Shown piece after piece: positions 5,072 through 33,937 of a stretch of DNA of 64,000 bases. The stretch is from an uncultured Holophagae bacterium (lineage in GTDB: Bacteria; Acidobacteriota; Thermoanaerobaculia; Thermoanaerobaculales; Sulfomarinibacteraceae), in NCBI GenBank assembly GCA_963710645.1, contig CAVQBD010000002.1, forward strand, positions 138,828-202,827, given 5' to 3'. Below the pieces are notes generated by a model. The model worked only from the letters and a program-made list of their open reading frames with translations. It ran no database searches and had not been told where the DNA came from. The position numbers and the translations under genes were made by a program. Position 1 is the stretch's first letter, and each line of letters begins with the position of its first letter.

Positions 5072-5089
5072 TGGTACCTTGAATCCGGC

Positions 5090-5201: not shown

Positions 5202-5417
5202 ATGGAGATTCCAGGCAAGGTCTCCCTGTACTGTCCGCTGGTGGATGCAAAGGGCACTGCGGCAACCCTGGTCGCGGTCTCCCCACAGGGCTACTATCAG
5301 CTCGAGGTGATGGTCCAAGGCAATCGTCACACCATGTTCGTGCCGGTGGGTCATGCCGCGCTGTACTTCTCAGAACCCGAGATCGAACCCGACGAAGATC
5401 TCGAAATCGAACGTTGA
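5202..5417 (+). CDS. Small hypothetical protein (71 aa)
   Basis: ATG 5202 lies 6 nt after an AAGGAG RBS (5191-5196). It is the in-frame inner part of ORF 5079..5417, whose upstream part runs through ATCTTGG repeats. No family was recognised. Confidence 0.55.
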   Translation: MEIPGKVSLYCPLVDAKGTAATLVAVSPQGYYQLEVMVQGNRHTMFVPVGHAALYFSEPEIEPDEDLEIER

Positions 5418-7505: not shown

Positions 7506-7689
7506 ATTGTCTGTACCTATTGTAGCCCCCCGGCCCGTCCAGCCGGTGTGGACGGTGTGGATTCCCGCATCCGAGTCCGTGCCCGATGAGGGCTCCGAAT
7601 TCCAAGCGAGTGGAAGAACCCAGATCCCGGAACCCGAAAACAGGCAGATTGTCGCCGGCTATAATCGCGATCTGTGCGGGAGGTGCCTG

Positions 7690-18944: not shown

Positions 18945-21379
18945 TTGTCCACCCCTCCGGGGTCTCCACTGGCTATTACGGATCGCAGCCATCGGTGCCC
19001 CTGGAACCTGCGGTGGTGGATCTGGTGGACGCCTTCTTGTCCGCCAATCCGGGGGGTCGGGAGAGGTTGATTCCACTGTTGCAGTGCGTTCAGGACGAAG
19101 TCGGCCACCTACCCGTCGAGGCTCAGGAGCTGGTGGCAGATCGTCTGGCCATGTCACCGATCCAGGTCGCAGGAGTGGTCAGCTTCTACGATCTGTTCAC
19201 CCTCACGCCGCGGGCACCATTCGAAATCCGGGTCTGCGCGGGGACCGCCTGCCACGTTCAGGGTGGCGAAAGGGTGCTCGATGCGCTCACCGACGCTCTT
19301 GGAGTGACTGCCGGTGGCATCTCGGCAGACGGGTTGTTCAACCTCGAGCGAGGCCACTGCATCGGTGCCTGCGCCCTGGCCCCAGCGGTGATGGTCAACG
19401 GAGTTGTCCACGGGCGAATGACGGCCGGATCGGTGCGGCGGCTGGTGAGTCGGTTGCGTCACTCGGTCAAGGCTGCGGCGGAGCGGCCCGGTTCCATGGG
19501 TGCCGTCCGGTTGAGCCCTATGGGAGGCCTGTGGCGGAGCGCCCGTTGGCTGCCGACCGATGCATCCGGTGATGAAATCGGTGTGCGCACGATCCAGATC
19601 TGTTCAGGAAGCGGTTGCCTCGCCAACGGAGCTTTGGAGGTGGCGGAAGCCCTCAAGGCCTGTCTCCGCCGGCTGCGACGGGATGGTGGCCCGCGAGGTG
19701 CTTCGGTGGATCGGGTCAGGATAGAACTTGGAATCACTGGCTGTCGTGGCTTCTGCGCCGCCGGACCCCTGGTGAAGATCCCTGAAGTCGGTGTCCTGTA
19801 CTGCGGTGTAGGGGTCGACGACGCCGACGAGATCATCCAGAAGACGGTGTTCCAGGGTCACGTCATTCCGCGGCTGATATTTGGCGGCACAACTGGCGAC
19901 GGAAGGTACCGCAGCCAAGACGATATTCCCTTCTTCTCCGGCCAACAGCGACATGTGCTCGGGCTCTGCGGTGAAATCGACCCCGAGCGTATCGAACAAT
20001 ACGAATCTCAGGGTGGTTACCTGGCACTCGAACGGGTTGTCCGGGAATTCCGGCCGGACCAGGTGATCCAGCGGGTGATGGAATCCGGGTTGGTGGGTCG
20101 AGGCGGTTCCGGATTTCCGACCGGACGGAAGTGGCAGTTGGTCGCCGACGCCCCGGACGAGACCAAGGTCGTCATCTGCAATGGTGACGAAGGCGATCCC
20201 GGGGCGTTTATGGACCGCAGCTTGATGGAGGGCGACCCCCATTCGGTGCTGGAGGGAATGGCCATAGCGGGCTATGCGGTGGGCGCCCACATCGGCTACG
20301 TCTACCTGCGCGCCTCCTACGAGATGGCGGTGAGGAGAATGTTGCACGCCGTCGCGCAGGCACGTGAGCGCGGTTTTATCGGGGACGATGTCATGGCCAG
20401 CGGATACCACTTCGATGTCCGGATCGTGCAAGGTGGCGGCGCTTTCGTGTGCGGCGAGGAAACCGCGCTCATAGCCTCCATCGAGGGGCGACGAGCCATG
20501 CCCAGGACCCGTCCGCCACATCCTGCGACCCGCGGCCTGTGGGGACACCCCACGTTGATCAACAACGTCGAGACTCTGGCCAACATCCCGCAGATCTTGA
20601 TGCCGAGAAACCAACGGGGAGCCGGCCGCGCTACGACCAAGACGTTTGCGCTCACCGGTGCTGTTCGCAACGTCGGGCTGGTGGAGGTCACTCTGGGCAC
20701 CTCCCTGCGGGAGATCGTGTTCGGCATAGGTGGCGGACTGGCCGAGGGGCGAACATTCAAGGCGGCATGGATCGGCGGACCCGGAGGTGGGTGTCTCGGA
20801 GAGCCCCAACTGGACACCCCCATCGACTATGACTCCCTGGAGGAACAGGGAGTGGCCATGGGTTCGGGTGGGTTGGTGGTGGTGGACGACCGTACCTGCT
20901 CCGTTCGGCTGGCGCGTTTCATGCTCGCGTTTTGCGTCGAAGAATCGTGTGGCAAGTGTTCGCCCTGCCGAATCGGAACGCGGGTTCTGCTCGGTCTGCT
21001 GACTCGCGTCAGCGAGGGTGAGGGGCGGGCGGGAGACCTGGAGAGAATCGAACGCCTCGGAGAACACGTGCACAGGACATCTCTCTGTGGACTGGGACAG
21101 TCGGCCCCAATGCCGGTTCTGACTGCGCTCCGCCATTTCCGTTCGGAGTTCGAATCCCACCTCAACAGCCGCAGTTGCCCCGCCGGGGAGTGCTACCGGT
21201 TGTTGGATCTGCGTATCGATGCCGAATTGTGCGAGGGCTGTGGAGACTGCGTCGTGGTCTGTCCGGAGCAGGCGATCGTGGGAGAACCCGGTTCGAGCTA
21301 CGCCATCGACCTCGACCGATGCAACCGCTGCGGGCTATGTATCCACTGCTGCCCGTACGATGCTATCGAAACAGTGTAA
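18941..21379 (+). CDS. NuoE-like/NuoF-like fusion flavoprotein with an extra 2Fe-2S domain and a C-terminal 2x[4Fe-4S] ferredoxin domain (HydB/HydC- or Bfu-type)
   Basis: GTG 18941 overlaps the upstream TGA. NuoE motif (VCAGTACHVQG...GHCIGACALAP) and a second thioredoxin-like 2Fe-2S (CSGSGCLANG...GCRGFCAAGP). NuoF motifs GRGGSGFPTGRKW, CNGDEGDPGAFMDR and SCGKCSPCR...LCGLG. Ferredoxin motifs CEGCGDCVVVCP and CNRCGLCIHCCP. Confidence 0.8.
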   Translation: MIVHPSGVSTGYYGSQPSVPLEPAVVDLVDAFLSANPGGRERLIPLLQCVQDEVGHLPVEAQELVADRLAMSPIQVAGVVSFYDLFTLTPRAPFEIRVCAGTACHVQGGERVLDALTDALGVTAGGISADGLFNLERGHCIGACALAPAVMVNGVVHGRMTAGSVRRLVSRLRHSVKAAAERPGSMGAVRLSPMGGLWRSARWLPTDASGDEIGVRTIQICSGSGCLANGALEVAEALKACLRRLRRDGGPRGASVDRVRIELGITGCRGFCAAGPLVKIPEVGVLYCGVGVDDADEIIQKTVFQGHVIPRLIFGGTTGDGRYRSQDDIPFFSGQQRHVLGLCGEIDPERIEQYESQGGYLALERVVREFRPDQVIQRVMESGLVGRGGSGFPTGRKWQLVADAPDETKVVICNGDEGDPGAFMDRSLMEGDPHSVLEGMAIAGYAVGAHIGYVYLRASYEMAVRRMLHAVAQARERGFIGDDVMASGYHFDVRIVQGGGAFVCGEETALIASIEGRRAMPRTRPPHPATRGLWGHPTLINNVETLANIPQILMPRNQRGAGRATTKTFALTGAVRNVGLVEVTLGTSLREIVFGIGGGLAEGRTFKAAWIGGPGGGCLGEPQLDTPIDYDSLEEQGVAMGSGGLVVVDDRTCSVRLARFMLAFCVEESCGKCSPCRIGTRVLLGLLTRVSEGEGRAGDLERIERLGEHVHRTSLCGLGQSAPMPVLTALRHFRSEFESHLNSRSCPAGECYRLLDLRIDAELCEGCGDCVVVCPEQAIVGEPGSSYAIDLDRCNRCGLCIHCCPYDAIETV

Positions 21380-21390
21380 TCTCTGGAGCC

Positions 21391-22806
21391 ATGGCGTCTA
21401 CCAGCGAGACTCCGTTTGCCTATATCTTCGCCTCCGAGCTGCACGGGCGTCTGTTGTGGTTCGCGCGGCTGAGGTGGTTCGCGGTTGCGGTGCTGGCCGT
21501 CGCCTCGGTGGTCGGACCCCGATTCGGGTGGTCCGACGTCTGGCCAAGCCTCGCAATCATCGCGGGGCTCGTGGCAGTGTACAACCTGATCTTCACCAAG
21601 CGGCTCCGGAGTTATCTGCTGTGGGACAGGCCGTACCACGATCTACGAGCCGTAGCGATCGTGCAGATGCTGACCGACCTTGGTGCGCTGCTACTGGTGG
21701 TGCACTTCACAGGTGGCTGCCACAGCCCTGTGTTGCCGTTCGTGGTGTTCCACATGGCCATCGGCACGATCATGATCTCCACCCGGCTGATGTACGTGCT
21801 GGCGATGGTGACCATCATGGGCACGCTGGGATTGTTCGCCCTCGAGGGCTGGGTTCTGGAGCACCATCATCCCATCACGCCTCATACTGACGGCCTGGAG
21901 CTGTCATGCGTGCTCAACGCCGCGGTCATGGTGGTTCTGGTCTTCGGCATGGTCTACCTGACGGACACCGTGACCAGTCGTTTCAAGACCCGAGGCATCC
22001 AGCTCCACAAGACCAGCGAGCAGCTCAGATACCGGAAAGAAGAGCTCCAACAGTTGCTCCGCGAGCGTGAAGGCGTGGAGAGGCGCAAGTCTCACTACAT
22101 GCGGATCTCGGCCCACCAGTTGCGGTCGCCCCTCGGTACCATCAAGACTTCTCTGCAGGTCCTGGTGGACGGCATCGTCGATCCCGCCAGTGACGGTGGA
22201 CGGAGACTCATCGTGGGCGCCTCGGAGCGGGTGGATGATTTGCTGGAGATCGTCAACGACCTGCTGGAGCTGGCCAAGATGCGCGAGGGTCGGTTGCGGG
22301 CGCCCTGGGCTCGCCAGGTCTACATCAACCAGGTCCTGGCCGATATTTTTGACGCCATCGGACCGTTGGCCCAGGAGGGCCGGGTGGAGCTGGTGGCTGA
22401 TGTGGATGGTGTGGCGCTGCTCGACTGGGGGGTTCCGCCCGATCTGGTCTACGTCTTCGAGAACCTCATCGGTAACGCCATCAAGTACTCCCTCGAGGGT
22501 GGCGAGGTCCGGGTCAGATTGCGGGTCGAGGATGGCGTGGCGAAGGTCGAAGTGTCGGATCAGGGCATCGGTATTCCGGAAGAATTCTTGGACGATGTCT
22601 TCTTGGAGTTTGTTCGCGCGCCAAATGCCAAGAAACACGCGGCGGGCGGCACCGGTCTCGGCTTGTCCATTGTGCGCGAGGGTGTGGAGATGCACGGCGG
22701 CACCGTCGAGGTGGCAAGCGAGCCTGGCCGCGGCACCACCTTCACCGTCAAGCTCCCGTTGCATTTCGTTCCACCGGAGGTCGAGGATCGCGTCGATTCC
22801 GAATGA
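21391..22806 (+). CDS. Membrane sensor histidine kinase
   Basis: ATG 21391, inner start of ORF 21175..22806. Multi-TM N-terminus, H-box RISAHQLRSPLGT, N-box ENLIGNAIKYS and G-boxes DQGIGIP and GGTGLGLSIV. Confidence 0.85.
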   Translation: MASTSETPFAYIFASELHGRLLWFARLRWFAVAVLAVASVVGPRFGWSDVWPSLAIIAGLVAVYNLIFTKRLRSYLLWDRPYHDLRAVAIVQMLTDLGALLLVVHFTGGCHSPVLPFVVFHMAIGTIMISTRLMYVLAMVTIMGTLGLFALEGWVLEHHHPITPHTDGLELSCVLNAAVMVVLVFGMVYLTDTVTSRFKTRGIQLHKTSEQLRYRKEELQQLLREREGVERRKSHYMRISAHQLRSPLGTIKTSLQVLVDGIVDPASDGGRRLIVGASERVDDLLEIVNDLLELAKMREGRLRAPWARQVYINQVLADIFDAIGPLAQEGRVELVADVDGVALLDWGVPPDLVYVFENLIGNAIKYSLEGGEVRVRLRVEDGVAKVEVSDQGIGIPEEFLDDVFLEFVRAPNAKKHAAGGTGLGLSIVREGVEMHGGTVEVASEPGRGTTFTVKLPLHFVPPEVEDRVDSE

Positions 22807-22898
22807 CCGGATCCAGAGCATGGTGACCCGGACGGCCGGAGCGGCATATTGGGGATGGGACGGAGGGCCTGGAAGGGCCCCCCTCCTGGAGGATCCGC

Positions 22899-23588
22899 AT
22901 GGCAGGCACAGGGTGGAGCAGCAGGTGGTGGAAGCCCGCAGCCGGGGTGGCAGGGGTTGCGGTGGGAATATTGCTGGCCTGGCGGTTTGGCGCCTTTGAC
23001 CTGCTTACGGTTGACAACATCGACCGAATGGACCGGTGGTTCGACGTTCTTGGGATCTGGGCGCCGGTGGTCTTCATCCTGCTGTGGGTCGCAGCGGCGG
23101 TCTTCTTCCTTCCGGGGCTTCCCATATCCATCGCCGGGGGCCTGATCTTCGGTGCCGTCTGGGGCACCGTCTACACCACAATCGGCGCCAACCTGGGCGC
23201 GGCCGCAGCTTTTCTCATCGGCCGCTACCTGGCGCGGGACATGGTGGAGGGCCAGATCGAGAACAACGCCTCCCTGGTAAAAATCGACGAAGGCGTGAGG
23301 CGTCACGGCTGGCGCATGCTCATGATCACCCGGCTGGTGCCGGTCTTCCCCTTCAACATTCAGAACTACGTCTACGGTCTGACCGACATCGGACTCGGCA
23401 CCTACGTGTTGGTCAGTCTGGTGTGCATGGTGCCCGGGACCGTTGCCTACAACTTCGCGGCCGGCTCGGTCCGCACCGGGGATCTCGGCATGACCCTCTG
23501 GTATCTCGGAATCGCGGCCGTATTCTTCGTGCTGCTGTCGTTGCTGCCGGGGTGGATCAAGAAGCGGTATGGCGCAGGGGTGGAATAG
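22899..23588 (+). CDS. TVP38/TMEM64 (DedA-related, SNARE-associated) membrane protein
   Basis: Motifs FLPGLPISIAGGLIFG, GANLGAAAAFLIGRYLARD and RLVPVFPFNIQNYVYGLT. Confidence 0.75.
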   Translation: MAGTGWSSRWWKPAAGVAGVAVGILLAWRFGAFDLLTVDNIDRMDRWFDVLGIWAPVVFILLWVAAAVFFLPGLPISIAGGLIFGAVWGTVYTTIGANLGAAAAFLIGRYLARDMVEGQIENNASLVKIDEGVRRHGWRMLMITRLVPVFPFNIQNYVYGLTDIGLGTYVLVSLVCMVPGTVAYNFAAGSVRTGDLGMTLWYLGIAAVFFVLLSLLPGWIKKRYGAGVE

Positions 23589-23595
23589 GGTTCAA

Positions 23596-23782
23596 GTTGA
23601 AAGTCGAAAGTCGAAAGTCCCACCGGTCCAGGAGGCCAACAACTCGGGACTCGGGACTCGGGACTGAGGACTCGGGACTCGTCCCCCGCCCTCCCTCCCG
23701 GGACGACAACAGGGCGCGATGGGCGGGCGTACCACTCCGGGCACCTTCAAGTTGAAAGTTGAACGTTAAACGTTGAACGTTC
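23596..23782. repeat. Composite of heptamer arrays: GTYGAAA x3 (23596-23616), ACTCGGG x6 (23642-23683), AAMGTTG x5 (23748-23782)
   Basis: Each array is followed by CCC.CCCTCCCTCCC-GGACGACAACAGGGCGCG-ATGGGCGGGCGT. This makes a roughly 150-nt super-unit present twice in tandem (about 23590-23745 and 23746-23835). Confidence 0.85.
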
Positions 23783-23805
23783 CCACCCTCCCTCCCAGGA
23801 CGACA

Positions 23806-23966
23806 ACAGGGCGCGTATGGCGGGCGTGCCGTCTCTGACGATTTTGGGTTGAGGTCGAACAGTCTGCGTGTCGCGACGAGTCCCGAACAGTGTCAGGGGT
23901 GGCAACCTCGGGGAGCGCGGTTGGGAGATGGGCGCGTCGAAGCCGGTGAATCGAACCGTACGCCCG
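23806..23966 (+). repeat. Dispersed roughly 160-nt repeat, copy B
   Basis: See copy A at 11336-11497. The ORF-track translations of both loci share ...CQGW.PRGARLGDGR...ESNRT.... Confidence 0.8.
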
Positions 23967-24081
23967 TGCCCGGGTTCCGGCGCCAGCGGCAGCGTTCAGC
24001 GACAGTAACCAGCGACAGCAACCAGGCAACAGCGATCCGGGGGAGCGGCCGAACGGCTCACAGGGCGGGCGGCGGATCGAA

Positions 24082-24183
24082 CATCCAGGATCCAGCATCG
24101 AACATCCGGCATCCGGCATCCGGGTGGGCGGTGGATCTTGAATCTTGAATCTTGGGTCTTGCATCTTGGGTCTTGCATCTGGT
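24082..24183. repeat. Heptamer arrays, CATCCGG x6 (24082-24123) and ATCTTGR/GTCTTGC x7 (24135-24183)
   Basis: The arrays are separated by GGGTGGGCGGTGG. The second array belongs to the same unit family as 5090-5142. Confidence 0.9.
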
Positions 24184-24441
24184 CGGGTGGGTGGGGGCCC
24201 GGCGTTACGCGCTGGGAACGGCAAGAACGCCGGTGTCACAGCCAAATCCCAGGGTTCCGGGCGCCCTTTTGCGAAAGGCACAAGCGACAGCCGGCCCCAA
24301 GCCTTTCACCAACCGCGATTTCCGACGGTGGAGAGGGTTGGTGGGTGATCCGGGGAGACTCGAAATCATACCGTTTTCCTAAGGAATAGGAATTGCTCAA
24401 TTGTCCGGGGATGAGGTGTGCCTGTGGGCGATGGATCGAAT

Positions 24442-24471
24442 TTGAAATCCCTGCAAAATCTCCTCTATTTG
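24442..24471 (+). promoter_or_regulatory. Weak sigma-70-type promoter candidate for dsrMK
   Basis: TTGAAA (24442-24447), an 18-nt spacer, then TATTTG (24466-24471), inside the only AT-rich tract of the 940-nt spacer. Confidence 0.3.
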
Positions 24472-24529
24472 ATCGACTATCTCAATATTCCAGAAGAGAA
24501 TTCGGTATGATGGGCGAGGAGTGCTACTG

Positions 24530-25465
24530 ATGACTATTATTACTTATATGATCGCTTACTGTGGCATCGCAATCTTCCTGGTGGCCTGCGTGGCCCGGTT
24601 CAAGATGTGGTCGAAGATGCCCATGCACCTTCGCTGGGAACTCTACCCGGTGGCCCATGAGGGTGGCGGCAGAGCCGCGTACGGCGGTTCCTACCTCGAG
24701 GAAAGTGATTGGTGGACCAAGCCTCGCAACGTCTCGCTCGTGGGCGAGGCCAAGGTGATGGTGCCTGAAATCCTCTTTCTCGAGGCTCTCAAGGAGCACA
24801 ACAACCAGCTCTGGAAGCGCTCATTCCCGTTCCATTTCGGGCTCTACCTGGTGGCAGCGTGCACCATCCTGATGATGATCAACGGCATTCTGAGCGCCCT
24901 GCTGCCGGGGCTCATGGGTGGAATCATCGGGACGCTCTTCTCCTGGATGATCCCGATCACCGGCTACGCCGGGTTGATCATGGGATTGGTGGGTGCGGTG
25001 GGTCTGATCCAGCGGCGATTCGTCAAACCGCTGCGCGACTACTCGGCGCCCGTCGACGTGCTCAACCTCGTGTTCTTCGTGGTGGCCTTTGGTACGGCCC
25101 TGGTGACAGCACTTTGGGTCGACCACGGCTTCGAGCGGGTCACCGCGTTTGTCGGAAATCTGGTGACATTCCACGTCGCCCCGCTCCCGGGAACAGGGCC
25201 GGAGGTCCTGATGCCCATGATCTCGGCCATCCTGCTCGCTCTTCTGGTGGCCTACATTCCACTCACACACATGTCCCACTTCGTGGGCAAGTATTTCGCA
25301 TATCATTCCATCCGCTGGGCAGATGAACCCAATCTCCGCGGCGGAAAGCAAGAGAAGGTCATTCACGAGTTGTTGGACCAGCCCGTGTCATGGTCGGCCC
25401 CCCATATTCAGGGTGACGGCAAGAAGACGTGGTTGGATGTCGCGACGGAGGATCAGAAGAAATGA
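24530..25465 (+). CDS. dsrM: DsrM-like membrane b-type cytochrome (NarI/HdrE family)
   Basis: ATG 24530 lies 8 nt after a GAGGAG RBS. It is a polytopic membrane protein with the NarI-like N-terminus ...RFKMWSKMPMHLRWELYP. An ATGA overlap couples it translationally to the DsrK-like gene. Confidence 0.75.
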   Translation: MTIITYMIAYCGIAIFLVACVARFKMWSKMPMHLRWELYPVAHEGGGRAAYGGSYLEESDWWTKPRNVSLVGEAKVMVPEILFLEALKEHNNQLWKRSFPFHFGLYLVAACTILMMINGILSALLPGLMGGIIGTLFSWMIPITGYAGLIMGLVGAVGLIQRRFVKPLRDYSAPVDVLNLVFFVVAFGTALVTALWVDHGFERVTAFVGNLVTFHVAPLPGTGPEVLMPMISAILLALLVAYIPLTHMSHFVGKYFAYHSIRWADEPNLRGGKQEKVIHELLDQPVSWSAPHIQGDGKKTWLDVATEDQKK

Positions 25466-27066
25466 AGCAACCTGACAGCGTCAAGGATATTTCGAAGCAT
25501 CCGGGTCAGCCGCTGGCCCAGGTCAAGCCCATGGACCTGGTGCCGCTGCCACCCCCATTCGACAAGCTGGACGAGGAACCGGAGTTCGCTCAGTTGTCGG
25601 AAAAAGCTCGGCAGCAGTACGTTGTGCTTGACGACACCATCGCGGTGAACATCAAGAACCCCGAGACCAAGGAGGAGGAGGATCGCCTCGTCCAGAGCTT
25701 CTTGACCGGCATGAAGAAGTTGTTCACGAAGGAGGACAACTGGACGTTCCTACAGCCGCTCGAGATGTCCATGGAGCATTGCGCCAAGTGCATGACCTGC
25801 TCCGAGGCCTGCCACATCTTCGAGGAGTCGAATGAGAACGAGCTCTATCGGCCCACCTACCGGTCGGAGATCATTCGGCGGATCTACTTCAAGTACATCA
25901 AGAAGGCTTCACCCCTGATCCACGGCGACATCGATCTCAATTGGACCACCGTGGGCCGTCTCATCGAATTGAGCTATCGCTGCAATCTCTGCCGGCGCTG
26001 CGCCCAGACCTGCCCGATCGGTGTGGACAACGCGTTGTTGTCACGGGAGATCCGTAAGATCGCGTCCCAGGAGATGGGAATCGTTCCGAAGGAACTCCAC
26101 GACAATGGATCAGTACTGCAGCTCGAGGTTGGGTCTTCCACAGGGATGACCCCGATGATCGTCAAGGACAACATCGAGTTCATCGACGAGGACACGGCCG
26201 AGCGTACCGGCATCGTGTACGAGACCCCATGGGATGTTGAGGGAGCCGACATTCTGCTCATCCACAACGCGGGAGAAATCATGGCGTGGCCGGAGAACCC
26301 GGGCGCCTTTGGCACCATCTTTGATGCCGCCGGTCTGAGCTGGACCATGTCGTCGGAGATCGTGGCCTATGACGGCATCAATTACGGGGTTTGGTACGAC
26401 GACATGATGTTTGCCAAGGTGGCCGTCAAGCATGCTCAGGCGGCGGCCAAGCTCGGCGTCAAGAAGATCGTGCTCGGCGAGTGTGGCCACGCGCACAAGG
26501 CGCTTACCGTGATCGCCGACAGGGTGCTCACTGGAGACCTCAACATTCCCCGCGAAAGTTCCATGGTGACCCTGCTGGATATCGTCCGGTCGGGGAAGGT
26601 CAAGTTCGACAAGAGCCGGAACGACTTCCCGGTGACCCTTCACGATCCCTGCAATCTCGTTCGACTGATGGGTGTTGTCTCGCCGCAGCGGGAGATCATC
26701 GAGGCGGTGGTGCCCGAGGGCCGGTTCCGGGAGATGGCGCCGCACGGAGTCGAGAACTACTGCTGCGGAGGCGGATCGGGCTTTGCCATCATGTCCGGTC
26801 ACAATTTCGCCGATTGGCGTCACTACATGACCGGTCGCAGGAAGTTTCGCCAGATCCTCGACGCCTTCCAGGGCGAGGAAATGGACATGGACCATCCCAA
26901 GTATCTCTGCGCCCCGTGTTCCAACTGCAAGGGCCAGATCCGCGACATCATCACCTACTACGACGCATGGGAGAAAGCCGGTATCTACTACGGTGGCCTG
27001 GTGGAGTTGATGGTCAACGCCATGGTGGATGCCCAGCCGGGCTTCATCGATTGGGAGTGGCACTAG
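25462..27066 (+). CDS. dsrK: DsrK-like Fe-S/CCG heterodisulfide-reductase-type subunit (HdrD family)
   Basis: Ferredoxin motifs CAKCMTCSEACH and CNLCRRCAQTCP. CCG-type motifs GECGHAHK, HDPCNLVR, YCCGGGSGF and CAPCSNCKGQ. Confidence 0.8.
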   Translation: MKQPDSVKDISKHPGQPLAQVKPMDLVPLPPPFDKLDEEPEFAQLSEKARQQYVVLDDTIAVNIKNPETKEEEDRLVQSFLTGMKKLFTKEDNWTFLQPLEMSMEHCAKCMTCSEACHIFEESNENELYRPTYRSEIIRRIYFKYIKKASPLIHGDIDLNWTTVGRLIELSYRCNLCRRCAQTCPIGVDNALLSREIRKIASQEMGIVPKELHDNGSVLQLEVGSSTGMTPMIVKDNIEFIDEDTAERTGIVYETPWDVEGADILLIHNAGEIMAWPENPGAFGTIFDAAGLSWTMSSEIVAYDGINYGVWYDDMMFAKVAVKHAQAAAKLGVKKIVLGECGHAHKALTVIADRVLTGDLNIPRESSMVTLLDIVRSGKVKFDKSRNDFPVTLHDPCNLVRLMGVVSPQREIIEAVVPEGRFREMAPHGVENYCCGGGSGFAIMSGHNFADWRHYMTGRRKFRQILDAFQGEEMDMDHPKYLCAPCSNCKGQIRDIITYYDAWEKAGIYYGGLVELMVNAMVDAQPGFIDWEWH

Positions 27067-27070
27067 GTCA

Positions 27071-27126
27071 GTGACTCGTGAATAGTAAATAGTGAATAGT
27101 GAATAGTGAATAGTGAGTCGAGAATA
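27071..27126. repeat. Heptamer tandem array, GTGAATA family, 8 units
   Basis: It starts 5 nt after the dsrK TAG stop and belongs to the same unit family as 4875-4916, 22 kb away. Confidence 0.95.
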
Positions 27127-27154
27127 GTCGGAAGCTGACAGCATCAAATGATCA

Positions 27155-27236
27155 GAGACCGCCCACCCGCGTGGGCGGTTTTTTCAATGGCCCCGCCCTG
27201 GCCGATCCAAGAACGAAGAACGAAGAACGAAGATCC
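27155..27236 (+). repeat. 75-82-nt direct repeat, copy 1 (terminator hairpin, CAATGGCCCCGCCCTGGCCGATCC, then AAGAACG array)
   Basis: Apart from the AAGAACG unit count, I saw no difference from 27501-27575. This copy has three full AAGAACG units; copy 2 has two. Confidence 0.9.
27159..27184 (+). terminator. Rho-independent terminator downstream of dsrK (copy 1)
   Basis: CCGCCCAC-ccgc-GTGGGCGG gives an 8-bp GC stem with a 4-nt loop, followed by TTTTTT. Confidence 0.8.
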
Positions 27237-27263
27237 CCCCCACCCGCCCGGGTGGGGGTTTTT
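27237..27263 (+). terminator. Second hairpin and T-run terminator
   Basis: CCCCCACCC-gccc-GGGTGGGGG followed by TTTTT. Confidence 0.65.
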
Positions 27264-27500
27264 GTCGTCCCGTCCAGAGTGGGGGAGTGATCGGAACGAG
27301 ACCGCAACCCCGTTCCCGCTCCCGTTCCCGTTCCCGGGCACGGGGGCAGGCAGTACGGAGTGCAGTAGGGAGCAGGGGGCGGTCCACCTCTGAGCCCGTT
27401 GTCGTTACCGTTACCGAATACTCGGACCGGGGTGTCTGGGGGCCGTGAGCCGTGAGCTGTGCGCAGGCAGTCGGCAGGAACCCATAGAACCCAATCGATC

Positions 27501-27575
27501 GAGACCGCCCACCCGCGTGGGCGGTTTTTTCAATGGCCCCGCCCTGGCCGATCCAAGAACGAAGAACGAAGATCC
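27501..27575 (+). repeat. 75-82-nt direct repeat, copy 2
   Basis: See copy 1 at 27155-27236. Confidence 0.9.
27505..27530 (+). terminator. Rho-independent terminator (copy 2; identical hairpin to 27159-27184)
   Basis: Same CCGCCCACCCGCGTGGGCGG hairpin and T6, inside the second copy of a 75-82-nt direct repeat. Confidence 0.7.
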
Positions 27576-27813
27576 CCCATCCGCTCGAGGAGCGCGTTCG
27601 GAGAAAGTCGTTCTTCGGAGGTGCCTGGACTCCTGACGTTGTGGAGCAGCCGTCTCGGCTGCAATTCTTGCCCCAATTGAATGCATAAATGCGGGCCGGA
27701 GGATTGCTCCACAGTGACTCTCCGGTCTTGTACGTGTCTCGTATCTGCGCGGGCGGGTGGGCGGGGGTCTCATAGCTTATAGCGCAGGGCTTATAGCCTG
27801 AACGGCCGGGTGG

Positions 27814-27848
27814 GCCCGAACCCGGAACCCGGAACCCGGAACCAACGA
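27814..27848. repeat. Heptamer tandem array, CCCGGAA x5
   Basis: GCCCGAA CCCGGAA CCCGGAA CCCGGAA CCAACGA. Confidence 0.9.
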
Positions 27849-28017
27849 GGATGGCCCGCGGCCAGCGGTTCATGGCTTGCGACCGGAGCAAACTGCGATC
27901 CCCGACGGTCGTCTTCCATTGCAACTTGCGACGGTGCCGCTCGTGGATTGCCGGGAAGTCAGCCCGAAATATTGATTTTAAGAGACTTGTGCATAATTTC
28001 ACGAAATCTAGGAAAAT

Positions 28018-28033
28018 GGCACGCCGGTTGCTG
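28018..28033 (+). promoter_or_regulatory. Sigma-54 (-24/-12) promoter candidate for the beta-propeller and hmc-like operon
   Basis: TGGCACGCCGGTTGCT matches the consensus at every conserved position (GG 28019-28020, GC 28031-28032). It lies about 60 nt upstream of ATG 28092, with an AT-rich tract just upstream. Confidence 0.7.
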
Positions 28034-28091
28034 TTTCTCATCGTGGAGGGAGGGATTTGCCCTCCGCTTGGCACGGAGAAAGGGAGTGGCC

Positions 28092-29354
28092 ATGGTTGAC
28101 CTGGAGGGCTGGAATTGGGAGGAGGGACGGAGGGCCGTCGCCGACGTTTCCCGACTGCGGGAGCAGTTTGCAGATGTCCATGAGTTTGCGGTCAGCGGCG
28201 ACGGAGAGGTCATCGCCGCGCCGGTGGTCGACGAGTCGGGTGGCTTTGGTGTCTGGGTCAACGGCGCACTCTGGGAGGGAGAGTTCGAGAAAGCGTGGCA
28301 TCTCGTTTTCACTCCGGATCAGCGGTTGACGGCGTTGGTCCGCGTCGACGATGAGTGGACTCTGGCGGTGGACGGAGAGCTCTGGGATCAACGCTGGGAA
28401 TTTGCCTGGAACCCGACCTTCAGCCGCGATGGTCGGGTGATTGCGTTGCAGATCAAGGACAACATGGAGTACTCGGTTGCCGTCAACGGAACGCCGTGGG
28501 ACTGCCGCTTTCCCTCGAGCCGCGGTCTGGCGGTGAGCGACGACGGCAACACCGTGGCCGCGCTGGTTCAGGTGGTTCCGTTGGCAGAGGCGGACATCGT
28601 CGGCTTCATGGATGGAACCTGGTCCATCGCGGTCAACGGCGAGCCGTGGCAACAGAAATTCATCAACGTCTACGGCCTCGCGATCAGCGAAGACGGCTCG
28701 GGCGTTGCCGCCGAGGTCCGGCTTGACATCTGCAAGTACACGCTGGCTGAGAACTCACGGCCCTGGGAGAGCCGCTTCGGGTGCGTGTGGGAGCCCGCCT
28801 ATCGAAACGGCAGCCGGAATCTCCTGGCGCCGGTGCGGGTCGAGGGCTCGTGGACAATCGCGGAGAACGGGAGCCCCATCTGGTCGAGTCGCTTCATGCA
28901 GCTGTGGAACCTGCGGCTGAGTCAGGACGGAAGGCGGCTCGCCGCGGTGGCCGCGGGGGCTTTTGGCTCGTGGACGGTGGTGGTCGACGATCGGCCGTGG
29001 CCGGTCTCGTTCAACGATTTGATCCTGCCGCCGGTCTTCTCGCCAGACGGCCGAAGGGTCGCCGCAGGAGTCCGCCATGACGGCGTGTGGAGCGTGGCCG
29101 TCGACGGTACCCGCTGGCAGGAGACCTACGACATGGTCTGGGATCCGGTCTTTGCGCCCGACGGTGCGCGGGTGGTGGCGAAGGTGGAGCGCGACAGGAA
29201 GTTTGCCGTCGCGGTCGACGGCGAGGTCCGCGGCCCGTGGTTCGAGGCGATGTGGGAACCGGTGGTGAGCCCCGATGGGCAGCGGCTGCTGGTACGGGCC
29301 GTCGAGGACGGTGTCTACACCCGCCGGGTCGTTTCGTTCGACGGTCTCGGCTGA
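28092..29354 (+). CDS. Cytoplasmic repeat protein, about 10 PD40/WG-like beta-propeller blades
   Basis: ATG 28092 follows a GAAAGGGAG RBS; no signal peptide. The roughly 40-aa unit FSPDGrrvAa.v..dg.WsvAVdG..W...fd.vWdPv recurs about 10 times (for example FSRDGRVIALQ, VSDDGNTVAAL, FSPDGRRVAAG, FAPDGARVVAK, VSPDGQRLLVR). Confidence 0.7.
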   Translation: MVDLEGWNWEEGRRAVADVSRLREQFADVHEFAVSGDGEVIAAPVVDESGGFGVWVNGALWEGEFEKAWHLVFTPDQRLTALVRVDDEWTLAVDGELWDQRWEFAWNPTFSRDGRVIALQIKDNMEYSVAVNGTPWDCRFPSSRGLAVSDDGNTVAALVQVVPLAEADIVGFMDGTWSIAVNGEPWQQKFINVYGLAISEDGSGVAAEVRLDICKYTLAENSRPWESRFGCVWEPAYRNGSRNLLAPVRVEGSWTIAENGSPIWSSRFMQLWNLRLSQDGRRLAAVAAGAFGSWTVVVDDRPWPVSFNDLILPPVFSPDGRRVAAGVRHDGVWSVAVDGTRWQETYDMVWDPVFAPDGARVVAKVERDRKFAVAVDGEVRGPWFEAMWEPVVSPDGQRLLVRAVEDGVYTRRVVSFDGLG

Positions 29355-29369
29355 TCGAGAGGAGGGAGC

Positions 29370-30017
29370 ATGTTCGACTTCATCAGCGGTCCGCTCGTTT
29401 GGATCGCCTTCGCCGGCCTCTTTGGAGGGCTCGCCTACCGGCTGGTCACGATGGCTGCACTGGCGCGGCGGGAGCGGGTGGTCTACCCGACGCTGGACGC
29501 CAAGTACGGCACCCGCTCACTGCTCCATTGGCTGATCCCCTTCGCGGGAAGAAAGACTCGTCTGCACCCTGCCTACACCTTGGTGTCATACGCCTTTCAC
29601 GTCTGTCTGCTGGTGACGCCGTTGTTTGCCGCCGGGCACGTCCTGCTCTTCAAGCGGTCATGGGGATTCGGCTGGTGGACCCTGCCCGACGCGGTCGGCG
29701 ACGGGATGACCCTCGTGGTGGTCTTCGCCTGCCTGTTTTTTATGATCCGGCGCCTGCTGCAGCCTGAGGTTCGCAACGTCAGCGACGCCTCAGACTTCCT
29801 CCTCGCGGGCGTGGTCCTGGTTCCATTCGCGACGGGGTTCCTCGCCCACCGGCAGTGGCTCTCCTACGAACCGATGCTCATCATCCACGGTCTTTCCGGC
29901 GTGCTGGCCCTGTTGCTGATCCCGTGGACGCGTCTGGTGCACCTGCTGTGGTTCACCTTCACCCGCGCTTTCATGGGCTCCGAGTTCGGGGCCGTCCGTC
30001 ACGCGAGGGATTGGTAA
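29370..30017 (+). CDS. hmcE: HmcE-like membrane b-type cytochrome (NarI/HdrE/DsrM family)
   Basis: 215 aa and polytopic, with His residues inside TM helices (AFHVCLL...AAGHVLL...IIHGLSG...LVHLLW). It sits directly upstream of an HdrD-like subunit. RBS GAGGAGGG. Confidence 0.65.
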   Translation: MFDFISGPLVWIAFAGLFGGLAYRLVTMAALARRERVVYPTLDAKYGTRSLLHWLIPFAGRKTRLHPAYTLVSYAFHVCLLVTPLFAAGHVLLFKRSWGFGWWTLPDAVGDGMTLVVVFACLFFMIRRLLQPEVRNVSDASDFLLAGVVLVPFATGFLAHRQWLSYEPMLIIHGLSGVLALLLIPWTRLVHLLWFTFTRAFMGSEFGAVRHARDW

Positions 30018-30059
30018 TGAACCGCCACCATCAACCGATACCGACTGGAGCACGGCAGC

Positions 30060-31379
30060 ATGGCTGATCTGCAGGACATCCAGGTCATGGATCCCGGCGT
30101 TGACGACAATATCGCCAAACTGACGCCGGAGCGTATCGAGACCACTATCAACAGGGTGCTGACCGACGAGTGCGGCGCGCGGCTGCGGGTCTATCTCGAC
30201 ACGTGTGTCCACTGCGGCCTGTGTGCCGAGGCGTGCCAGAGCTACGTCTCCCGCAACGGCGACCCGGACTACGCGCCGGTGGCCAAGGTCAAGGACACGT
30301 TGTGGGAAATGGTCAAGCGCAAGGGTCGCGTGGACGGCGAATTCCTCCACAACGCGGCCCGAATCGCCTTCATTGACTGCGGGGCGTGCCGCCGCTGCAG
30401 CATGTACTGCCCATTTGGGATCGACATCGCCTATCTGATCATGACCGTGCGTCGGATCCTCAACCTGCTCGGGGTGGTTCCCCAGTACCTTCAAGACACC
30501 ACCAACAGCCACGCCGCCACCATGAACCAGATGTGGGTCCAGCAGGATGACTGGATCGACACCCTGATGTGGCAGGAGGAGGACGCCCAGGAGGAGCTGG
30601 CGGGCACCAGGATCCCGCTCGACAAGGAGGGCGCCGACATCATGTACTCGGTGATCGGTCCCGAACCCAAGATCCTCGCCCAGCTGATCGCCAACATGGC
30701 GATCATCTTCAAGGTGGCCGGCGCCGACTGGACCATGCCGTCCACCGACGGCTGGGACAACTCGAACATGGCCATGTACTCGGGCGACTTCGAAACCATG
30801 GGACGGGTCGAGCGGCTGCACTGGGAACGTGCCATGCAGCTCAAGGTCAAACGGGTGGTGATGGGCGAGTGCGGCCACGCCTACCGCGGGGCGGTTTACG
30901 ACGGACCGAGGTGGCTTGGTTGGACCAAGCCACCCATTCCCATGGTGCACGCCGTCGAGTACTACTACGAGATCATCAAGAGCGGTCGGCTGAAGATCGC
31001 CCGAAAGATCGAAGAGCCGGTCACGGTGCAGGATCCCTGCAACATCGTCCGCGGCCGCGGGCTTCACGACAAACTGAGGTACGTCGTCAACGCGATCTGC
31101 GAGGACTTCCGGGACATGGATCCCCGTTACGAGCACAACTACTGCTGTCAGGCCGGAGGAGGGCTGATCAATTGCGGCCCACCGTGGAAGGTGTCTCGGA
31201 TGAAGAGCAACAAGATCAAGGCGGAACAGATCGTCGGCACCGGGGCCCACACGGTCATCACCCCGTGCCACAACTGCCACAGCGGCATCGAAGACATCAT
31301 CGGTTACTACAAGCTCGGCGCCCATGTGTCGTTCATCAGCGAGCTCCTGGTCAAGACCATCGAGCTTCCGGAAGCCTGA
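30060..31379 (+). CDS. hmcF: HmcF-like Fe-S/CCG protein (HdrD/DsrK family)
   Basis: Motifs CVHCGLCAEACQ, CGACRRCSMYCP, GECGHAYRG, QDPCNIVR, YCCQAGGG and TPCHNCHSG. Confidence 0.7.
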   Translation: MADLQDIQVMDPGVDDNIAKLTPERIETTINRVLTDECGARLRVYLDTCVHCGLCAEACQSYVSRNGDPDYAPVAKVKDTLWEMVKRKGRVDGEFLHNAARIAFIDCGACRRCSMYCPFGIDIAYLIMTVRRILNLLGVVPQYLQDTTNSHAATMNQMWVQQDDWIDTLMWQEEDAQEELAGTRIPLDKEGADIMYSVIGPEPKILAQLIANMAIIFKVAGADWTMPSTDGWDNSNMAMYSGDFETMGRVERLHWERAMQLKVKRVVMGECGHAYRGAVYDGPRWLGWTKPPIPMVHAVEYYYEIIKSGRLKIARKIEEPVTVQDPCNIVRGRGLHDKLRYVVNAICEDFRDMDPRYEHNYCCQAGGGLINCGPPWKVSRMKSNKIKAEQIVGTGAHTVITPCHNCHSGIEDIIGYYKLGAHVSFISELLVKTIELPEA

Positions 31380-31382
31380 GGG

Positions 31383-32903
31383 GTGGTGGGAATGTCCGCA
31401 CGCAATTGGTATCTGGCGGTTTGGTGTGTTGTGCTGTTGCTCGCGGCCACGGTTGGGGTCTCGGCCGGGGAGGTCGGGGCTTTGCGGGCCATCGGCCCGT
31501 CGATCATCGTCATGGACAACATTGGCGCCTTCGACGTCATGGAGCGGCCATCGGTGGAGTTCGACCATGCGGCACACGCCGATGCGATGAAGTCTGAGGG
31601 CTGCACGGCGTGCCATCGGGTCGAGAACGAACGGCTGATGCCCAAACTGTCCGGGATTCCCAACGTCGGCGACCGAGATGAGTTGCTCGACGGCTTTCAT
31701 GGGAGGTGTATCGGTTGCCACTCCGAGCGCGCCGATGCGGCCCAGTCCAGCGGTCCGGTGACCTGCGGCGAGTGCCACGTCCGTCGGCCGGACGGTGTCT
31801 CGACTCGGGCGGCCATGTCCTTCGATTACTCGCTCCACGCACGCCACGCGCAGGCCTACCCCGAGCGGTGCGAGGAATGCCATCACGTCTACGACGAGCA
31901 GCAGCAGAAGTTGGTTTACGTCAAGGGCGAAGAAGATGCGTGTCGCTCGTGTCACGGAGAGTCGGACGTGAATGATACGCCCTCGCTCGAAAATGCCTCC
32001 CACCGAGGCTGCATCTCGTGCCACCTGAATCGGCAGGCGGCCGAGCTCGAGGCCGGCCCGGTGCGGTGCGTCGGGTGCCATGATCTCGATCACCAGCTTG
32101 CGATCAAGACCCTCGACGCGGCCGAGATTCCCCGCCTGCTGCGAGGCCAGCCGGACAGCGTCTGGATCGTCGACGACGAGGCTCGGACCAGGGTCGTGGC
32201 CTTTGATCACAAGGGACACGAGTCGGTCACCACCTCGTGCTCCACCTGCCATCACCAGACGATGAAGCCCTGTGGTGAGTGCCACACGTTGGTTGGCTCA
32301 ACGGAGGGTGGTGGGGTCACCATGGCGGTGGCTTATCACCTCGATGGCTCCGAACACAGCTGTGTGGGGTGCCATACGCTCGAAACTCGCGAGCAGGAGT
32401 GCTCCGGCTGCCACGCCCAGCCCTCGGTGGCACCGGCCGAAAGTACTTGCACGGTGTGTCATGCGGGTCCGGTCGCTGGACCCGAGGTGGCCGAGATGCC
32501 GGTGCCGGTTGCTCAACAATCGGAAATGGCGGCTCTTCCCCAGATCTCGGAATCCTACCCGGAGACGGTGGAGATCGCCGTGCTGGTGGACCGATACCAG
32601 TCCTCCAAGCTGCCCCACGCCAAGATTGTGGCCCGGCTCGACGCAGCGGTACGGGCCAGCGATCTGGCCGGTCGATTCCACCAGAATGTGGAGACCTTGT
32701 GCGCGGGCTGTCACCACCACAGTCCGGCGGGGATCCGGCCGCCGCCGTGTCGCGCGTGCCACGCCGAGGCTGCCGCCACCCGGGACATGCCCGGACTCAA
32801 GGTTGCCTACCACCGGCAGTGCATGGGCTGCCATGCCGAGATGGGGATCAAGGCTCAGAGCTGTACGGATTGCCACGCAGAGAGGGAGGGCGAAGAGTCA
32901 TGA
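31383..32903 (+). CDS. hmcA: Periplasmic 16-heme cytochrome c (HmcA-like)
   Basis: Signal peptide, and 16 CXXCH motifs counted in the translation: CTACH, CIGCH, CGECH, CEECH, CRSCH, CISCH, CVGCH, CSTCH, CGECH, CVGCH, CSGCH, CTVCH, CAGCH, CRACH, CMGCH, CTDCH. Confidence 0.85.
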   Translation: MVGMSARNWYLAVWCVVLLLAATVGVSAGEVGALRAIGPSIIVMDNIGAFDVMERPSVEFDHAAHADAMKSEGCTACHRVENERLMPKLSGIPNVGDRDELLDGFHGRCIGCHSERADAAQSSGPVTCGECHVRRPDGVSTRAAMSFDYSLHARHAQAYPERCEECHHVYDEQQQKLVYVKGEEDACRSCHGESDVNDTPSLENASHRGCISCHLNRQAAELEAGPVRCVGCHDLDHQLAIKTLDAAEIPRLLRGQPDSVWIVDDEARTRVVAFDHKGHESVTTSCSTCHHQTMKPCGECHTLVGSTEGGGVTMAVAYHLDGSEHSCVGCHTLETREQECSGCHAQPSVAPAESTCTVCHAGPVAGPEVAEMPVPVAQQSEMAALPQISESYPETVEIAVLVDRYQSSKLPHAKIVARLDAAVRASDLAGRFHQNVETLCAGCHHHSPAGIRPPPCRACHAEAAATRDMPGLKVAYHRQCMGCHAEMGIKAQSCTDCHAEREGEES

Positions 32904-33937
32904 GCATCACACGCCGGTCCATGATCGGAGGCCTGGTTGGTGGGGCGGCCGCCATGGCGGCCGAGTCCGCCGATGCCGGCTCCCATAAGCATTTCGAGGG
33001 CTATCCGGGCCGCTACGGGCTCCTCCACGACACCACCCTGTGTGTGGGCTGCCGGTCCTGCGAGATGGCCTGTGGCGAGGTCAACGATCTGCCCGCCCCA
33101 GAGGCTCCCATTGGTGACCAGCGTGTCTTTGAGGACACGCGGCGGACCACTGCCACCCATCTGACGGTCGTCAACCGCTATGTTGAACGAAGCGGCAATC
33201 AGCCGGAGGTGTTCCGCAAGCTCCAGTGCATGCACTGCAACGAGCCGTGCTGCGCCACCGTGTGCCCGGTTGGAGCATTCACAAAAACCCCCGAGGGACC
33301 GGTGCTCTATGACGCCGAGGTCTGCATGGGTTGCCGCTACTGCATCATGGCCTGCCCCTACAACGCCTTGGCCTATGAGTATGACAATCCGCTGACGCCA
33401 AGGGTCATGCGCTGCACCATGTGCTATCAGCGGATCGTGGAGGGCCAGGTTCCGGGTTGTGCCGAAGCCTGTCCAACAGGCGCCATCACCTTCGGCCGGC
33501 GCGACGAACTCATTAAAGTGGCCAGAGAGAGGATCCGCAAGGAACCCGGCCGCTACATCGACCACATCTTCGGTGAGAACGAGTTCGGCGGCACGAGCTG
33601 GCTGCTGCTGGCCGGCGTGCCCTTCAGTCAGCTCGATCTGCACGAGGGTCTGACCTATGAGCCCCTGCCGGCCATCGCGACCAGCTATCTCAGCGTCGTG
33701 CCACTGGTGATCACGATCTACCCGGGCCTGCTCCTCGGTCTGCACGCCTTCAGCAAACGCCAGGAGGCGGTGGCCCGCAAAGAGCGGGATGAGGCGGTGG
33801 CCGAAGCCCTGAAAAAGGCCGACGACGACGCGAAACAGAAGCTCACCAAGGCCGCCGAGAAGGCGAAGAAGGACCAGCAACGGGCGGTTGACATGGCGGT
33901 TAAAAAGGCGCTCGAGGAGCACGGGGGTGGAGCATGA
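32900..33937 (+). CDS. hmcB: HmcB-like Tat-exported 4x[4Fe-4S] protein (DsrO/PsrB/NrfC family) with a C-terminal TM anchor
   Basis: ATG 32900, with an ATGA overlap to hmcA. Twin-arginine leader MSITRRSMIGGLVGG. Four Cys clusters (CVGCRSCEMAC, CMHCNEPCCATVCP, CMGCRYCIMACP, CTMCYQR...CAEACP) and a late hydrophobic helix. Confidence 0.8.
   Translation: MSITRRSMIGGLVGGAAAMAAESADAGSHKHFEGYPGRYGLLHDTTLCVGCRSCEMACGEVNDLPAPEAPIGDQRVFEDTRRTTATHLTVVNRYVERSGNQPEVFRKLQCMHCNEPCCATVCPVGAFTKTPEGPVLYDAEVCMGCRYCIMACPYNALAYEYDNPLTPRVMRCTMCYQRIVEGQVPGCAEACPTGAITFGRRDELIKVARERIRKEPGRYIDHIFGENEFGGTSWLLLAGVPFSQLDLHEGLTYEPLPAIATSYLSVVPLVITIYPGLLLGLHAFSKRQEAVARKERDEAVAEALKKADDDAKQKLTKAAEKAKKDQQRAVDMAVKKALEEHGGGA

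Follow-up and report, generated by a model that had tools for sequence, protein, structure and literature searches.

A repeat-rich, probably fast-evolving spacer with a duplicated terminator-like module between a dsrK-like gene and a tmc-hmc operon in an uncultured Holophagae bacterium

Introduction

Why does almost one kilobase of DNA without a gene, crowded with short repeats and terminator-like hairpins, lie between two respiratory operons? The DNA in question is the interval 27067–28017 of a stretch of 64,000 nucleotides (nt) from an uncultured Holophagae bacterium, which was analysed as a whole and is referred to as the window. The interval begins directly behind the stop codon that ends the coding sequence for a DsrK-like protein and ends at a sigma-54 promoter in front of tmcD, the first gene of a tmcDCB-hmcABC operon; the whole spacer without any gene, from the stop codon to the start codon of tmcD, measures 1025 nt. 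A preliminary description of this DNA had listed a patchwork of arrays and three strong terminators, and had regarded the latter either as unusual insulation between two respiratory operons or as marks of small RNAs or transcripts derived from the 3' untranslated region (3'-UTR). We compared the interval with the corresponding loci of relatives (numbered L001, L005, L008 and so on; about 0.9 Mb in all) and with the other spacers of the window. Our results point to a likely answer: this DNA is an intergenic spacer that has expanded and evolves fast, not a dedicated device.

Results and Discussion

Terminator-like hairpins and their number in sister genomes

The interval contains an exact direct repeat of 72 nt (27155–27226 and 27501–27572), which grows to about 80 nt if one more AAGAACG unit is admitted. 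Each copy of this module holds the palindrome ACCGCCCACCCGCGTGGGCGGT, followed by six T residues (hairpin hp1), and an AAGAACG array that was missing from the list in the preliminary description. The copies show no substitution over the 72 nt, and the adjoining arrays differ by one AAGAACG unit. In shuffled sequences, nothing matched the 72-nt repeat and the 46-nt core of the module never arose. A second kind of hairpin, hp2, is located between the two copies.

27155–27233, + strand: module copy 1, with hp1 (27158–27179), T6 (27179–27184), a 24-nt linker and (AAGAACG)x3.6
27237–27263, + strand: hp2, with stem-loop (27237–27258; 9 bp, 8 of them G-C) and T5 (27259–27263)
27501–27579, + strand: module copy 2, with hp1 (27504–27525), T6 (27525–27530), the linker and (AAGAACG)x2.6

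The stem of hp1 comprises nine G-C-rich pairs, extendable to 13, with a folding energy of -21.8 kcal/mol (z -4.7 and -4.5 for the two copies). The corresponding values for hp2, a second type of intrinsic-terminator-like site that is nearly identical in L008, are -22.8 kcal/mol and z -3.0. Both copies of hp1 as well as hp2 display the sequence features of intrinsic terminators, namely a GC-rich stem-loop and a T-run behind a gene on its sense strand; no T-run follows the hairpins when the minus strand is read. The twofold terminator module, the third hairpin with its T5 run and the crowding of three such sense-strand structures (within 375 nt) had all been noticed in the preliminary description and were confirmed.

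The gene order dsrM-dsrK-spacer-tmcD-tmcC-tmcB is common to many relatives, and the spacer is its variable part. Spacer lengths range from 305 to 1348 nt and fall between 305 and 437 nt in most relatives, including more distant ones. A comparison of spacer lengths had been proposed as a check, and the short spacers of more distant relatives argue against the insulation reading. At the DNA level the nearest relatives are L008 (87–89% identity in the upstream flanks) and L005 (88.7% in dsrK); a search with the TmcD protein yielded nothing nearer than 71% identity. Behind the dsrK stop codon, the three genomes are arranged as follows.

L005: (CGTAAGC)x4, GGAACCCATAGA, hp1 with T7
L008: (AAGAACG)x2.7, hp2, CCCGTT and AGGGAGC arrays, (GCCGTGA)x2.9, GGAACCCATAGA, hp1
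Window: GTGAATA array, an extra hp1, the series of L008, the linker and AAGAACG array again, about 290 nt of orphan DNA

Accordingly, L005 carries one terminator of this type, L008 two and the window three. The order GCCGTRA array, GGAACCCATAGA, hp1 is common to L005 and L008, indicating that the second hp1 of the window (27504–27530) occupies the ancestral position. To the series of L008, the window adds a GTGAATA array and an hp1 in front, and the linker with its AAGAACG array after hp1. Just past its stop codon, L008 has a stretch similar to hp1's left arm (AGCCGCCACCCG); judged from this short similarity, the duplication may predate the split between window and L008 and may have been followed by a deletion in L008. 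The two differ mostly in array copy number, including a 21-nt indel that equals three AGGGAGC units, and the AAGAACG array counts 3.6 and 2.6 copies in the window and 2.7 in L008. Array copy number is thus changing faster than bases are substituted, as slippage would predict.

The textbook case of tandem Rho-independent terminators at the end of an operon is rrnB T1-T2 of Escherichia coli. Similarly, the GC-rich hairpins with T-runs described here all lie on the sense strand behind one operon and would terminate additively. Unlike rrnB T1-T2, two of the three are recent exact copies, and the number varies from one to three across sister genomes. On these grounds, it appears that duplication gave rise to the redundancy as a by-product, and that no conserved design lies behind it. 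The idea of unusual insulation is further weakened by the other spacers of the window, since 7-nt arrays and duplicated modules occur likewise at 4865–5352 and 23589–24520. The same patchwork in other spacers indicates a genome-wide mutational habit and not a property of the junction between dsrK and tmcD, and since terminator number follows the rearrangements in the three sister genomes, we find in it no evidence of selection for extra insulation.

Heptamer arrays in the window and in other bacteria

Seven tandem arrays were detected by Tandem Repeats Finder (TRF) in the interval, five of them with a period of 7 nt, compared to means of 0.18 and 0.03 in 200 dinucleotide-preserving shuffles. 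In addition to the AAGAACG arrays, the following arrays and motifs were located.

27070–27128, + strand: (AGTGAAT/GTGAATA) array, 8.4 copies by TRF with 78% matches, including four exact GTGAATA
27309–27336: CCCGTT x4.7
27403–27414: CGTTAC x2
27442–27461: GCCGTGA x2.9
27751–27767, + strand: G-run motif GGGCGGGTGGGCGGGGG
27776 and 27790: CTTATAG x2
27818–27843: (GAACCCG)x3.7

The first of these is AT-rich and begins 4 nt past the dsrK stop codon. The GTGAATA, CGTTCCC-type, CGTTAC and GCCGTGA arrays and the G-run had been placed correctly in the preliminary description. Two other counts had to be lowered: CTTATAG, given as three units, occurs as two exact units and one CTCATAG, and CCCGGAA, given as five, as three exact units (3.7 copies by TRF). 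The view of the interval as a patchwork holds for most of its length and fails for the last ~130 nt (27885–28017), which are conserved regulatory DNA.

Period-7 arrays are not confined to this interval. Within the 64-kb window they account for 19 of 51 tandem arrays, compared to 1.6 in shuffles, and those with a score of at least 40 all lie outside genes. About 20 different heptamer units occur, with GC contents from 14% to 86%. The excess is also found in the close relatives L001, L005 and L008, and mostly not in more distant ones. The spacer upstream of dsrM (23589–24520, 932 nt) is built in the same style, with five heptamer-based arrays (AAGTCGA, ACTCGGG, GTTGAAC, CATCCAG, ATCTTGA) and a 49-nt module that occurs twice (23685 and 23782; 88% identical) with a C-rich quadruplex-type motif in each copy. 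The spacer at 4865–5352 also shows this patchwork. There, the same GTGAATA array (4864–4917) directly follows the stop codon at 4864 of a gene for an NtrC-type sigma-54 activator (3476–4864), and over 50 nt its leader matches the beginning of the dsrK spacer at 88% identity. The activator gene's final codons, GAA TAG T, are themselves one array unit.

An excess of heptameric intergenic repeats in bacteria, with polymerase slippage as the proposed cause, is attributed to Mrazek, Guo & Shah (2007, PNAS) in the paper that cites them (PMC4692102). In Xanthomonas and Nostoc, GGGAATC and GGGGAYT heptamers occur between co-directional open reading frames (ORFs) at most 50 bp distant from the stop codon, sometimes overlapping it, and the arrays vary in length between close relatives (PMC4692102). 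Heptanucleotide elements are also known from Geobacter metallireducens (PMC2700814), and TAACTGA repeats precede start codons in Beggiatoaceae (PMC4679880). The arrays described here share with the known heptameric intergenic simple sequence repeats the 7-nt unit, the 2–8 copies, the strong over-representation and the intergenic location, mostly between co-directional genes. As in Xanthomonas and Nostoc, they lie close to sense-strand stop codons, and close relatives differ in their copy number and sequence. They differ from the known families in having no single consensus unit and few G-quadruplex-prone units, and from the TAACTGA repeats, located just upstream of start codons, in following stop codons. 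None of the units found here (GTGAATA, AAGAACG, GCCGTGA, GAACCCG and others) equals the published units of the cyanobacterial STRR1-3, GGGAATC/GGGGAYT or TAACTGA families, and no account of heptamer repeats from Acidobacteria turned up in a full-text literature search. The spacer is a further example of the known heptameric intergenic repeats, in a new phylum, with unusually diverse units and, in addition, a duplicated terminator. The heptamer repeats of Xanthomonas, cyanobacteria and Beggiatoaceae are hereby extended to another phylum with many different units, and this diversity speaks less for a sequence-specific mechanism than for one linked to the length of the repeat, for instance slippage of the polymerase. 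Should the arrays vary within populations, strain typing in metagenomes could use them as markers.

A proposed history of the spacer and the points to be weighed

Taken together with the comparison of relatives, we propose the following sequence of events. The 5' part of the spacer would belong to the dsrMK-like operon as its untranslated 3' end, opening with the AT-rich 7-nt array. Through a local duplication of about 80 nt, a polymerase leaving dsrK would meet the intrinsic terminator hp1 twice, 346 nt apart, with hp2 between the copies; the ~290 nt of lineage-specific orphan DNA and the control region of tmcDCB-hmcABC follow. The first hp1, at about 27184, is the most likely end of dsrMK transcripts, and hp2 and the second hp1 would be redundant back-ups left behind by DNA rearrangement. 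Sigma-54, together with an activator that occupies the upstream boxes, would initiate transcription of the tmc-hmc operon separately. The arrays would arise from slipped-strand mispairing in 7-nt steps, a process presumably favoured by this lineage throughout its intergenic DNA. The arrangement of the elements, the absence of coding, the history seen by comparison and the conserved promoter are direct observations; termination, slippage and the binding of an activator are deduced.

Several findings weigh against this reading. Termination at hp1 and hp2 is predicted from hairpins and T-runs, and the duplication was seen in one assembly only. Part of the spacer is conserved to a degree that does not fit neutral drift: a block of 317 nt (27214–27530, + strand) shared with L008 is identical at 288 of 292 aligned bases (98.6% in a pairwise alignment), while other intergenic DNA reaches 69–84% and the flanks 71–89%. 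This block appears more conserved than expected for a neutral spacer, and part of it may be constrained or recently exchanged. Finally, of the 37 arrays in the acidobacterial loci, 15 are found no more than 25 nt from a stop codon, compared to 5.3 expected under uniform placement; many of these represent one orthologous site and are not independent. Such placement hints at more than neutral slippage. Two alternative readings arise from these findings.

According to the first, the heptamer arrays are functional post-stop elements, either sites for an RNA- or DNA-binding protein or stop signals in all frames, and the spacer is rich in them for the sake of regulation. Apart from the overall excess near stop codons, six independent spacers of the window start with a heptamer array 3–22 nt past the stop codon. 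At least ten relatives carry a heptamer array 0–7 nt past the dsrK stop, with units such as GTCTAAA, CGTAAGC, ATTCGGA, TTTGAGT, GGAATTA and GAATTCG, so that the position is kept and the sequence is not.

L001, 11613–11662: post-dsrK array
L005, 1684–1711: post-dsrK array
L019, 7611–7652: post-dsrK array
L021, 7606–7638: post-dsrK array
L024, L026, L028, L031 and L060, ~7606–7643: post-dsrK arrays

Stop-adjacent arrays are also AT-richer than others (GC 0.33 vs 0.47, p 0.014), and the placement resembles that reported for Xanthomonas and Nostoc (PMC4692102). However, the great diversity of units argues against a sequence-specific binder, the counted cases include the many non-independent ones at one orthologous position, and L003 and L008 have no array after the dsrK stop. 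A spacer is, moreover, also least constrained in the part that separates stop codon and terminator. We therefore regard a function of the arrays as unlikely. The variant in which they provide stop signals in all frames was abandoned, as units containing a stop triplet were not significantly enriched among stop-adjacent arrays (11 of 16 vs 8 of 19, p 0.18). If it is true that the arrays keep their position but not their sequence, they would constitute an element defined by period, not by sequence.

The second alternative assigns the conserved block to one or more small RNAs delimited by the hairpins: a transcript of at most 267 nt ending at the second hp1 (27264–27530), or an RNA that originates by processing of the 3'-UTR of the dsrMK message. 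The block comprises hp2, the CCCGTT array, CGTTAC x2, the GCCGTGA array, the GGAACCCATAGA box and the second hp1, and both its exceptional identity to L008, set against the coding flanks and the other intergenic DNA, and its ending in a strong hairpin would suit such an RNA. Several results are at odds with it. No match to Rfam 15 was obtained at E≤1 in 26500–28500, nor at the gathering score in the whole window. The + strand of the spacer has no sigma-70-like promoter, the fold of 27264–27532 is not significant (z -1.7), and L005, which is equally close in dsrK, lacks the block. Furthermore, the block consists largely of low-complexity arrays whose copy number differs between window and L008.

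The identity itself also has a simpler potential source. Identity of the coding flanks to L008 is uneven, ranging from 0.63 to 0.97 per 290-nt window, and the last 200 nt of dsrK reach 96%; a recombination tract or recent common descent would therefore suffice to explain the block. Elsewhere, the sigma-54 region is ~83% identical to L008 and tmcD 72%. The uneven identity across 19702–33391 suggests a mosaic history by recombination. Over the same region, identity swings between 0.63 and 0.97, with the 72% of tmcD next to 84–89% for the neighbouring genes. A small RNA encoded in the block is, on balance, improbable in our view. The two alternatives do not exclude each other: the 317-nt block could be a functional RNA, 3'-UTR-derived or separately terminated and tied to the dsrMK/tmc-hmc respiratory locus, and the AT-rich heptamer arrays behind stop codons could form a functional 3'-end element defined by period. 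We give these readings a low probability, and continue to favour the expanded, fast-evolving spacer.

Lineage-specific DNA and the slot behind dsrK

The segment between the second module and the control region was found in the window only. It was not detected in L008 or L005, and a search of related loci, plasmids and phages gave no match.

27580–27873: orphan segment, comprising an imperfect 80-nt hairpin (27637–27716), a G-quadruplex-type motif, CTTATAG x2 and (GAACCCG)x3.7

The 80-nt hairpin has a folding energy of -35 kcal/mol (z -2.5). A small mobile or dispersed element, similar to miniature inverted-repeat transposable elements (MITEs) or repetitive extragenic palindromes (REPs), might have landed in the spacer and be represented by the module that occurs twice, by the block shared with L008 or by the orphan segment. 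Such an origin would account for the double occurrence of the module, for the sharp rise of identity at the block and for the imperfect hairpin; the 10-mer CCGCCCACCC is also over-represented. Against it, the remaining 63 kb of the window and the 0.9 Mb of related loci yielded no further copy of module or block, and the exact hp1-module pattern had no match in the GTDB representatives (one genome per species). A 23-mer from the block was found in JGI metagenomes on two contigs that share those 23 bases only and thus represent chance matches. Plasmids and phages contained nothing similar, and the borders of the indels relative to L008 show neither terminal inverted repeats nor target duplications. 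MITEs and REPs are recognised by many copies at unrelated sites, a distribution that was encountered in none of these sequence sets, in which the source genome is represented by the window, and a mobile origin is very unlikely.

Two stretches have the form of a G-quadruplex motif (four G-runs, each of 3 or more residues, separated by loops of 1–7 nt), an assignment that refers to the sequence motif only: GGGCGGGTGGGCGGG at 27751–27765 on the + strand and GGGCGGGTGGGGGGG at 27235–27249 on the minus strand. The latter involves hp2, whose C-rich arm forms a G3N1G3N1G3N1G3 motif when read on the minus strand. The motif G3-N1-G3-N1-G3-N1-G3 occurs six times in the window, compared to 0.05 expected, and mostly in intergenic DNA (at 61, 23685, 23782, 27235, 27751 and 57732). 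The 10-mer mentioned above occurs seven times, compared to 0.46 expected.

In some relatives the slot behind dsrK is occupied by other DNA, while most have nothing there. The L022 spacer holds 3.7 kb of other DNA, and sigma-54 activator genes are found in the slot in L013, L014, L018 and L055. The remaining occupants are listed here.

L001, 11729–12436, minus strand: aquaporin (MIP) gene
L002, 11863–12561, minus strand: aquaporin (MIP) gene
L003, 11804–12502, minus strand: aquaporin (MIP) gene
L032, 8032–8721, minus strand: aquaporin (MIP) gene
L012, 7826–8188: 120-aa fragment of a sigma-54 activator

That the spacer is the eroded remnant of such an aquaporin or activator gene is suggested by these occupants but is extremely improbable, as tblastn of two MIP proteins and the activator fragment against 27067–28091 returned nothing even at E=10, and both genes are missing from the nearest genomes, L005 and L008, and from the distant relatives with short spacers. 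Since the latter also lack both genes, loss in the window is no more likely than insertion in the other lineages. The pseudogene idea was dropped for both genes because no residual protein similarity was left.

Absence of a coding signal

To determine whether the interval might encode a protein, three lines of evidence were considered. GC content by codon position is flat in all six frames of the spacer (0.58–0.62), compared to 0.74–0.87 at third (GC3) and 0.38–0.52 at second positions (GC2) in the real genes of the window. Pfam analysis of the five longest ORFs of the spacer gave no credible match, the sole hit being at chance level (E 0.06). Moreover, three 1-nt indels relative to the 98.6%-identical sequence of L008 (292 nt) break every reading frame. 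Based on the GC3 pattern, the Pfam result and the indels, a coding reading was discarded, in agreement with the earlier statement that 27067–28017 holds no credible ORF; the check for a protein-coding signal, which had been named there as a possible refutation, was negative for codon-position GC and Pfam. The 296-aa ORF on the minus strand is an artefact of the repeats, as had been suspected. The peptide FVLRSWIGQGGAIEKTAHAGGRS, said to occur in it twice, is present once; the distance between the DNA copies, 346 nt, is not divisible by 3, and this places the second copy in a different frame. Annotators of this sediment group of Acidobacteriota would thus read long 'empty' spacers, with their several terminators and long spurious ORFs, as products of 7-nt slippage and small duplications rather than as hidden genes or special insulators.

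The sigma-54 control region

The end of the spacer is of a different nature. When the 260 nt that lie upstream of tmcD were aligned for 17 relatives, 27885–28032 proved to be conserved regulatory DNA.

28017–28032, + strand: sigma-54 promoter TGGCAC-N5-TTGCT, TGGCACGCCGGTTGCT, with the tmcD start codon (28092) 75 nt downstream
27888–27898, + strand: box GCAAACTGCGA, in conserved alignment columns
27917–27931, + strand: box CATTGCAACTTGCGA, in conserved alignment columns

The pattern TGGCAC-N5-TTGCW occurs at -47 to -86 in 13 relatives and also in L005 near the end of its contig; the promoter predicted behind the interval is thus conserved in at least 14 relatives. The two boxes lie ~160–205 nt upstream of the start codon and probably serve a sigma-54 activator as binding sites, a role deduced from position and conservation. 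The AT-rich stretch between boxes and promoter is conserved as well.

Sigma-54 promoters are characterised by a GG element at -24 and a GC element at -12, with an enhancer-binding protein attached ~100–200 nt upstream. The control region resembles this established layout, with TGGCAC-N5-TTGCT at the right distance from the gene, two boxes 85–130 nt upstream of the promoter and an AT-rich stretch between them. Unlike in characterised sigma-54 systems, the box sequence GCA-N3-4-TGCGA was not matched to a known activator. Genes for at least two sigma-54 activators are present in the window (3476–4864 and 54976–57720), neither of them adjacent to the spacer. The conserved promoter and the boxes provide a lead to the control of the tmcDCB-hmcABC electron-transfer operon.

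On the minus strand, a sigma-70-like match (GTGAAA, 16 nt, TAAAAT) at 28002–27975 points leftwards into the spacer, one such match being found compared to 1.7 expected by chance. It sits in a stretch conserved with the relatives that have the divergent aquaporin gene and could be the orphaned promoter of that gene, although the match is no better than chance.

Flanking genes

The spacer is bordered by the following genes.

24521–25465: DsrM-like gene, paired with the DsrK-like gene upstream of the spacer
25462–27066, + strand: gene for a DsrK-like Fe-S/CCG protein (Pfam Fer4_8 and CCG), with its TAG stop codon (27064–27066) at the start of the spacer
28092–35121, + strand: downstream operon of tmcD, tmcC, tmcB-like, hmcA, hmcB-like and hmcC-like genes, identified by NCBIfam and by synteny in relatives

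Orthologues of the DsrK-like protein are present in 85 loci at 60–95% identity, and its close relatives come from metagenome-assembled genomes labelled Holophagae, Thermoanaerobaculia or Candidatus Sulfomarinibacteraceae, all within the Acidobacteriota. The gene names used previously hold in part. The upstream protein is DsrK-like, yet scores 321 bits against the NCBIfam DsrK model, below the cut-off of 400, and the operon termed hmc-like begins with tmcD, tmcC and a tmcB-like gene before hmcA and the hmcB- and hmcC-like genes. The operon at 28092–35121 is therefore a hybrid of tmc and hmc genes, preceded by a sigma-54 promoter that is conserved throughout the family.

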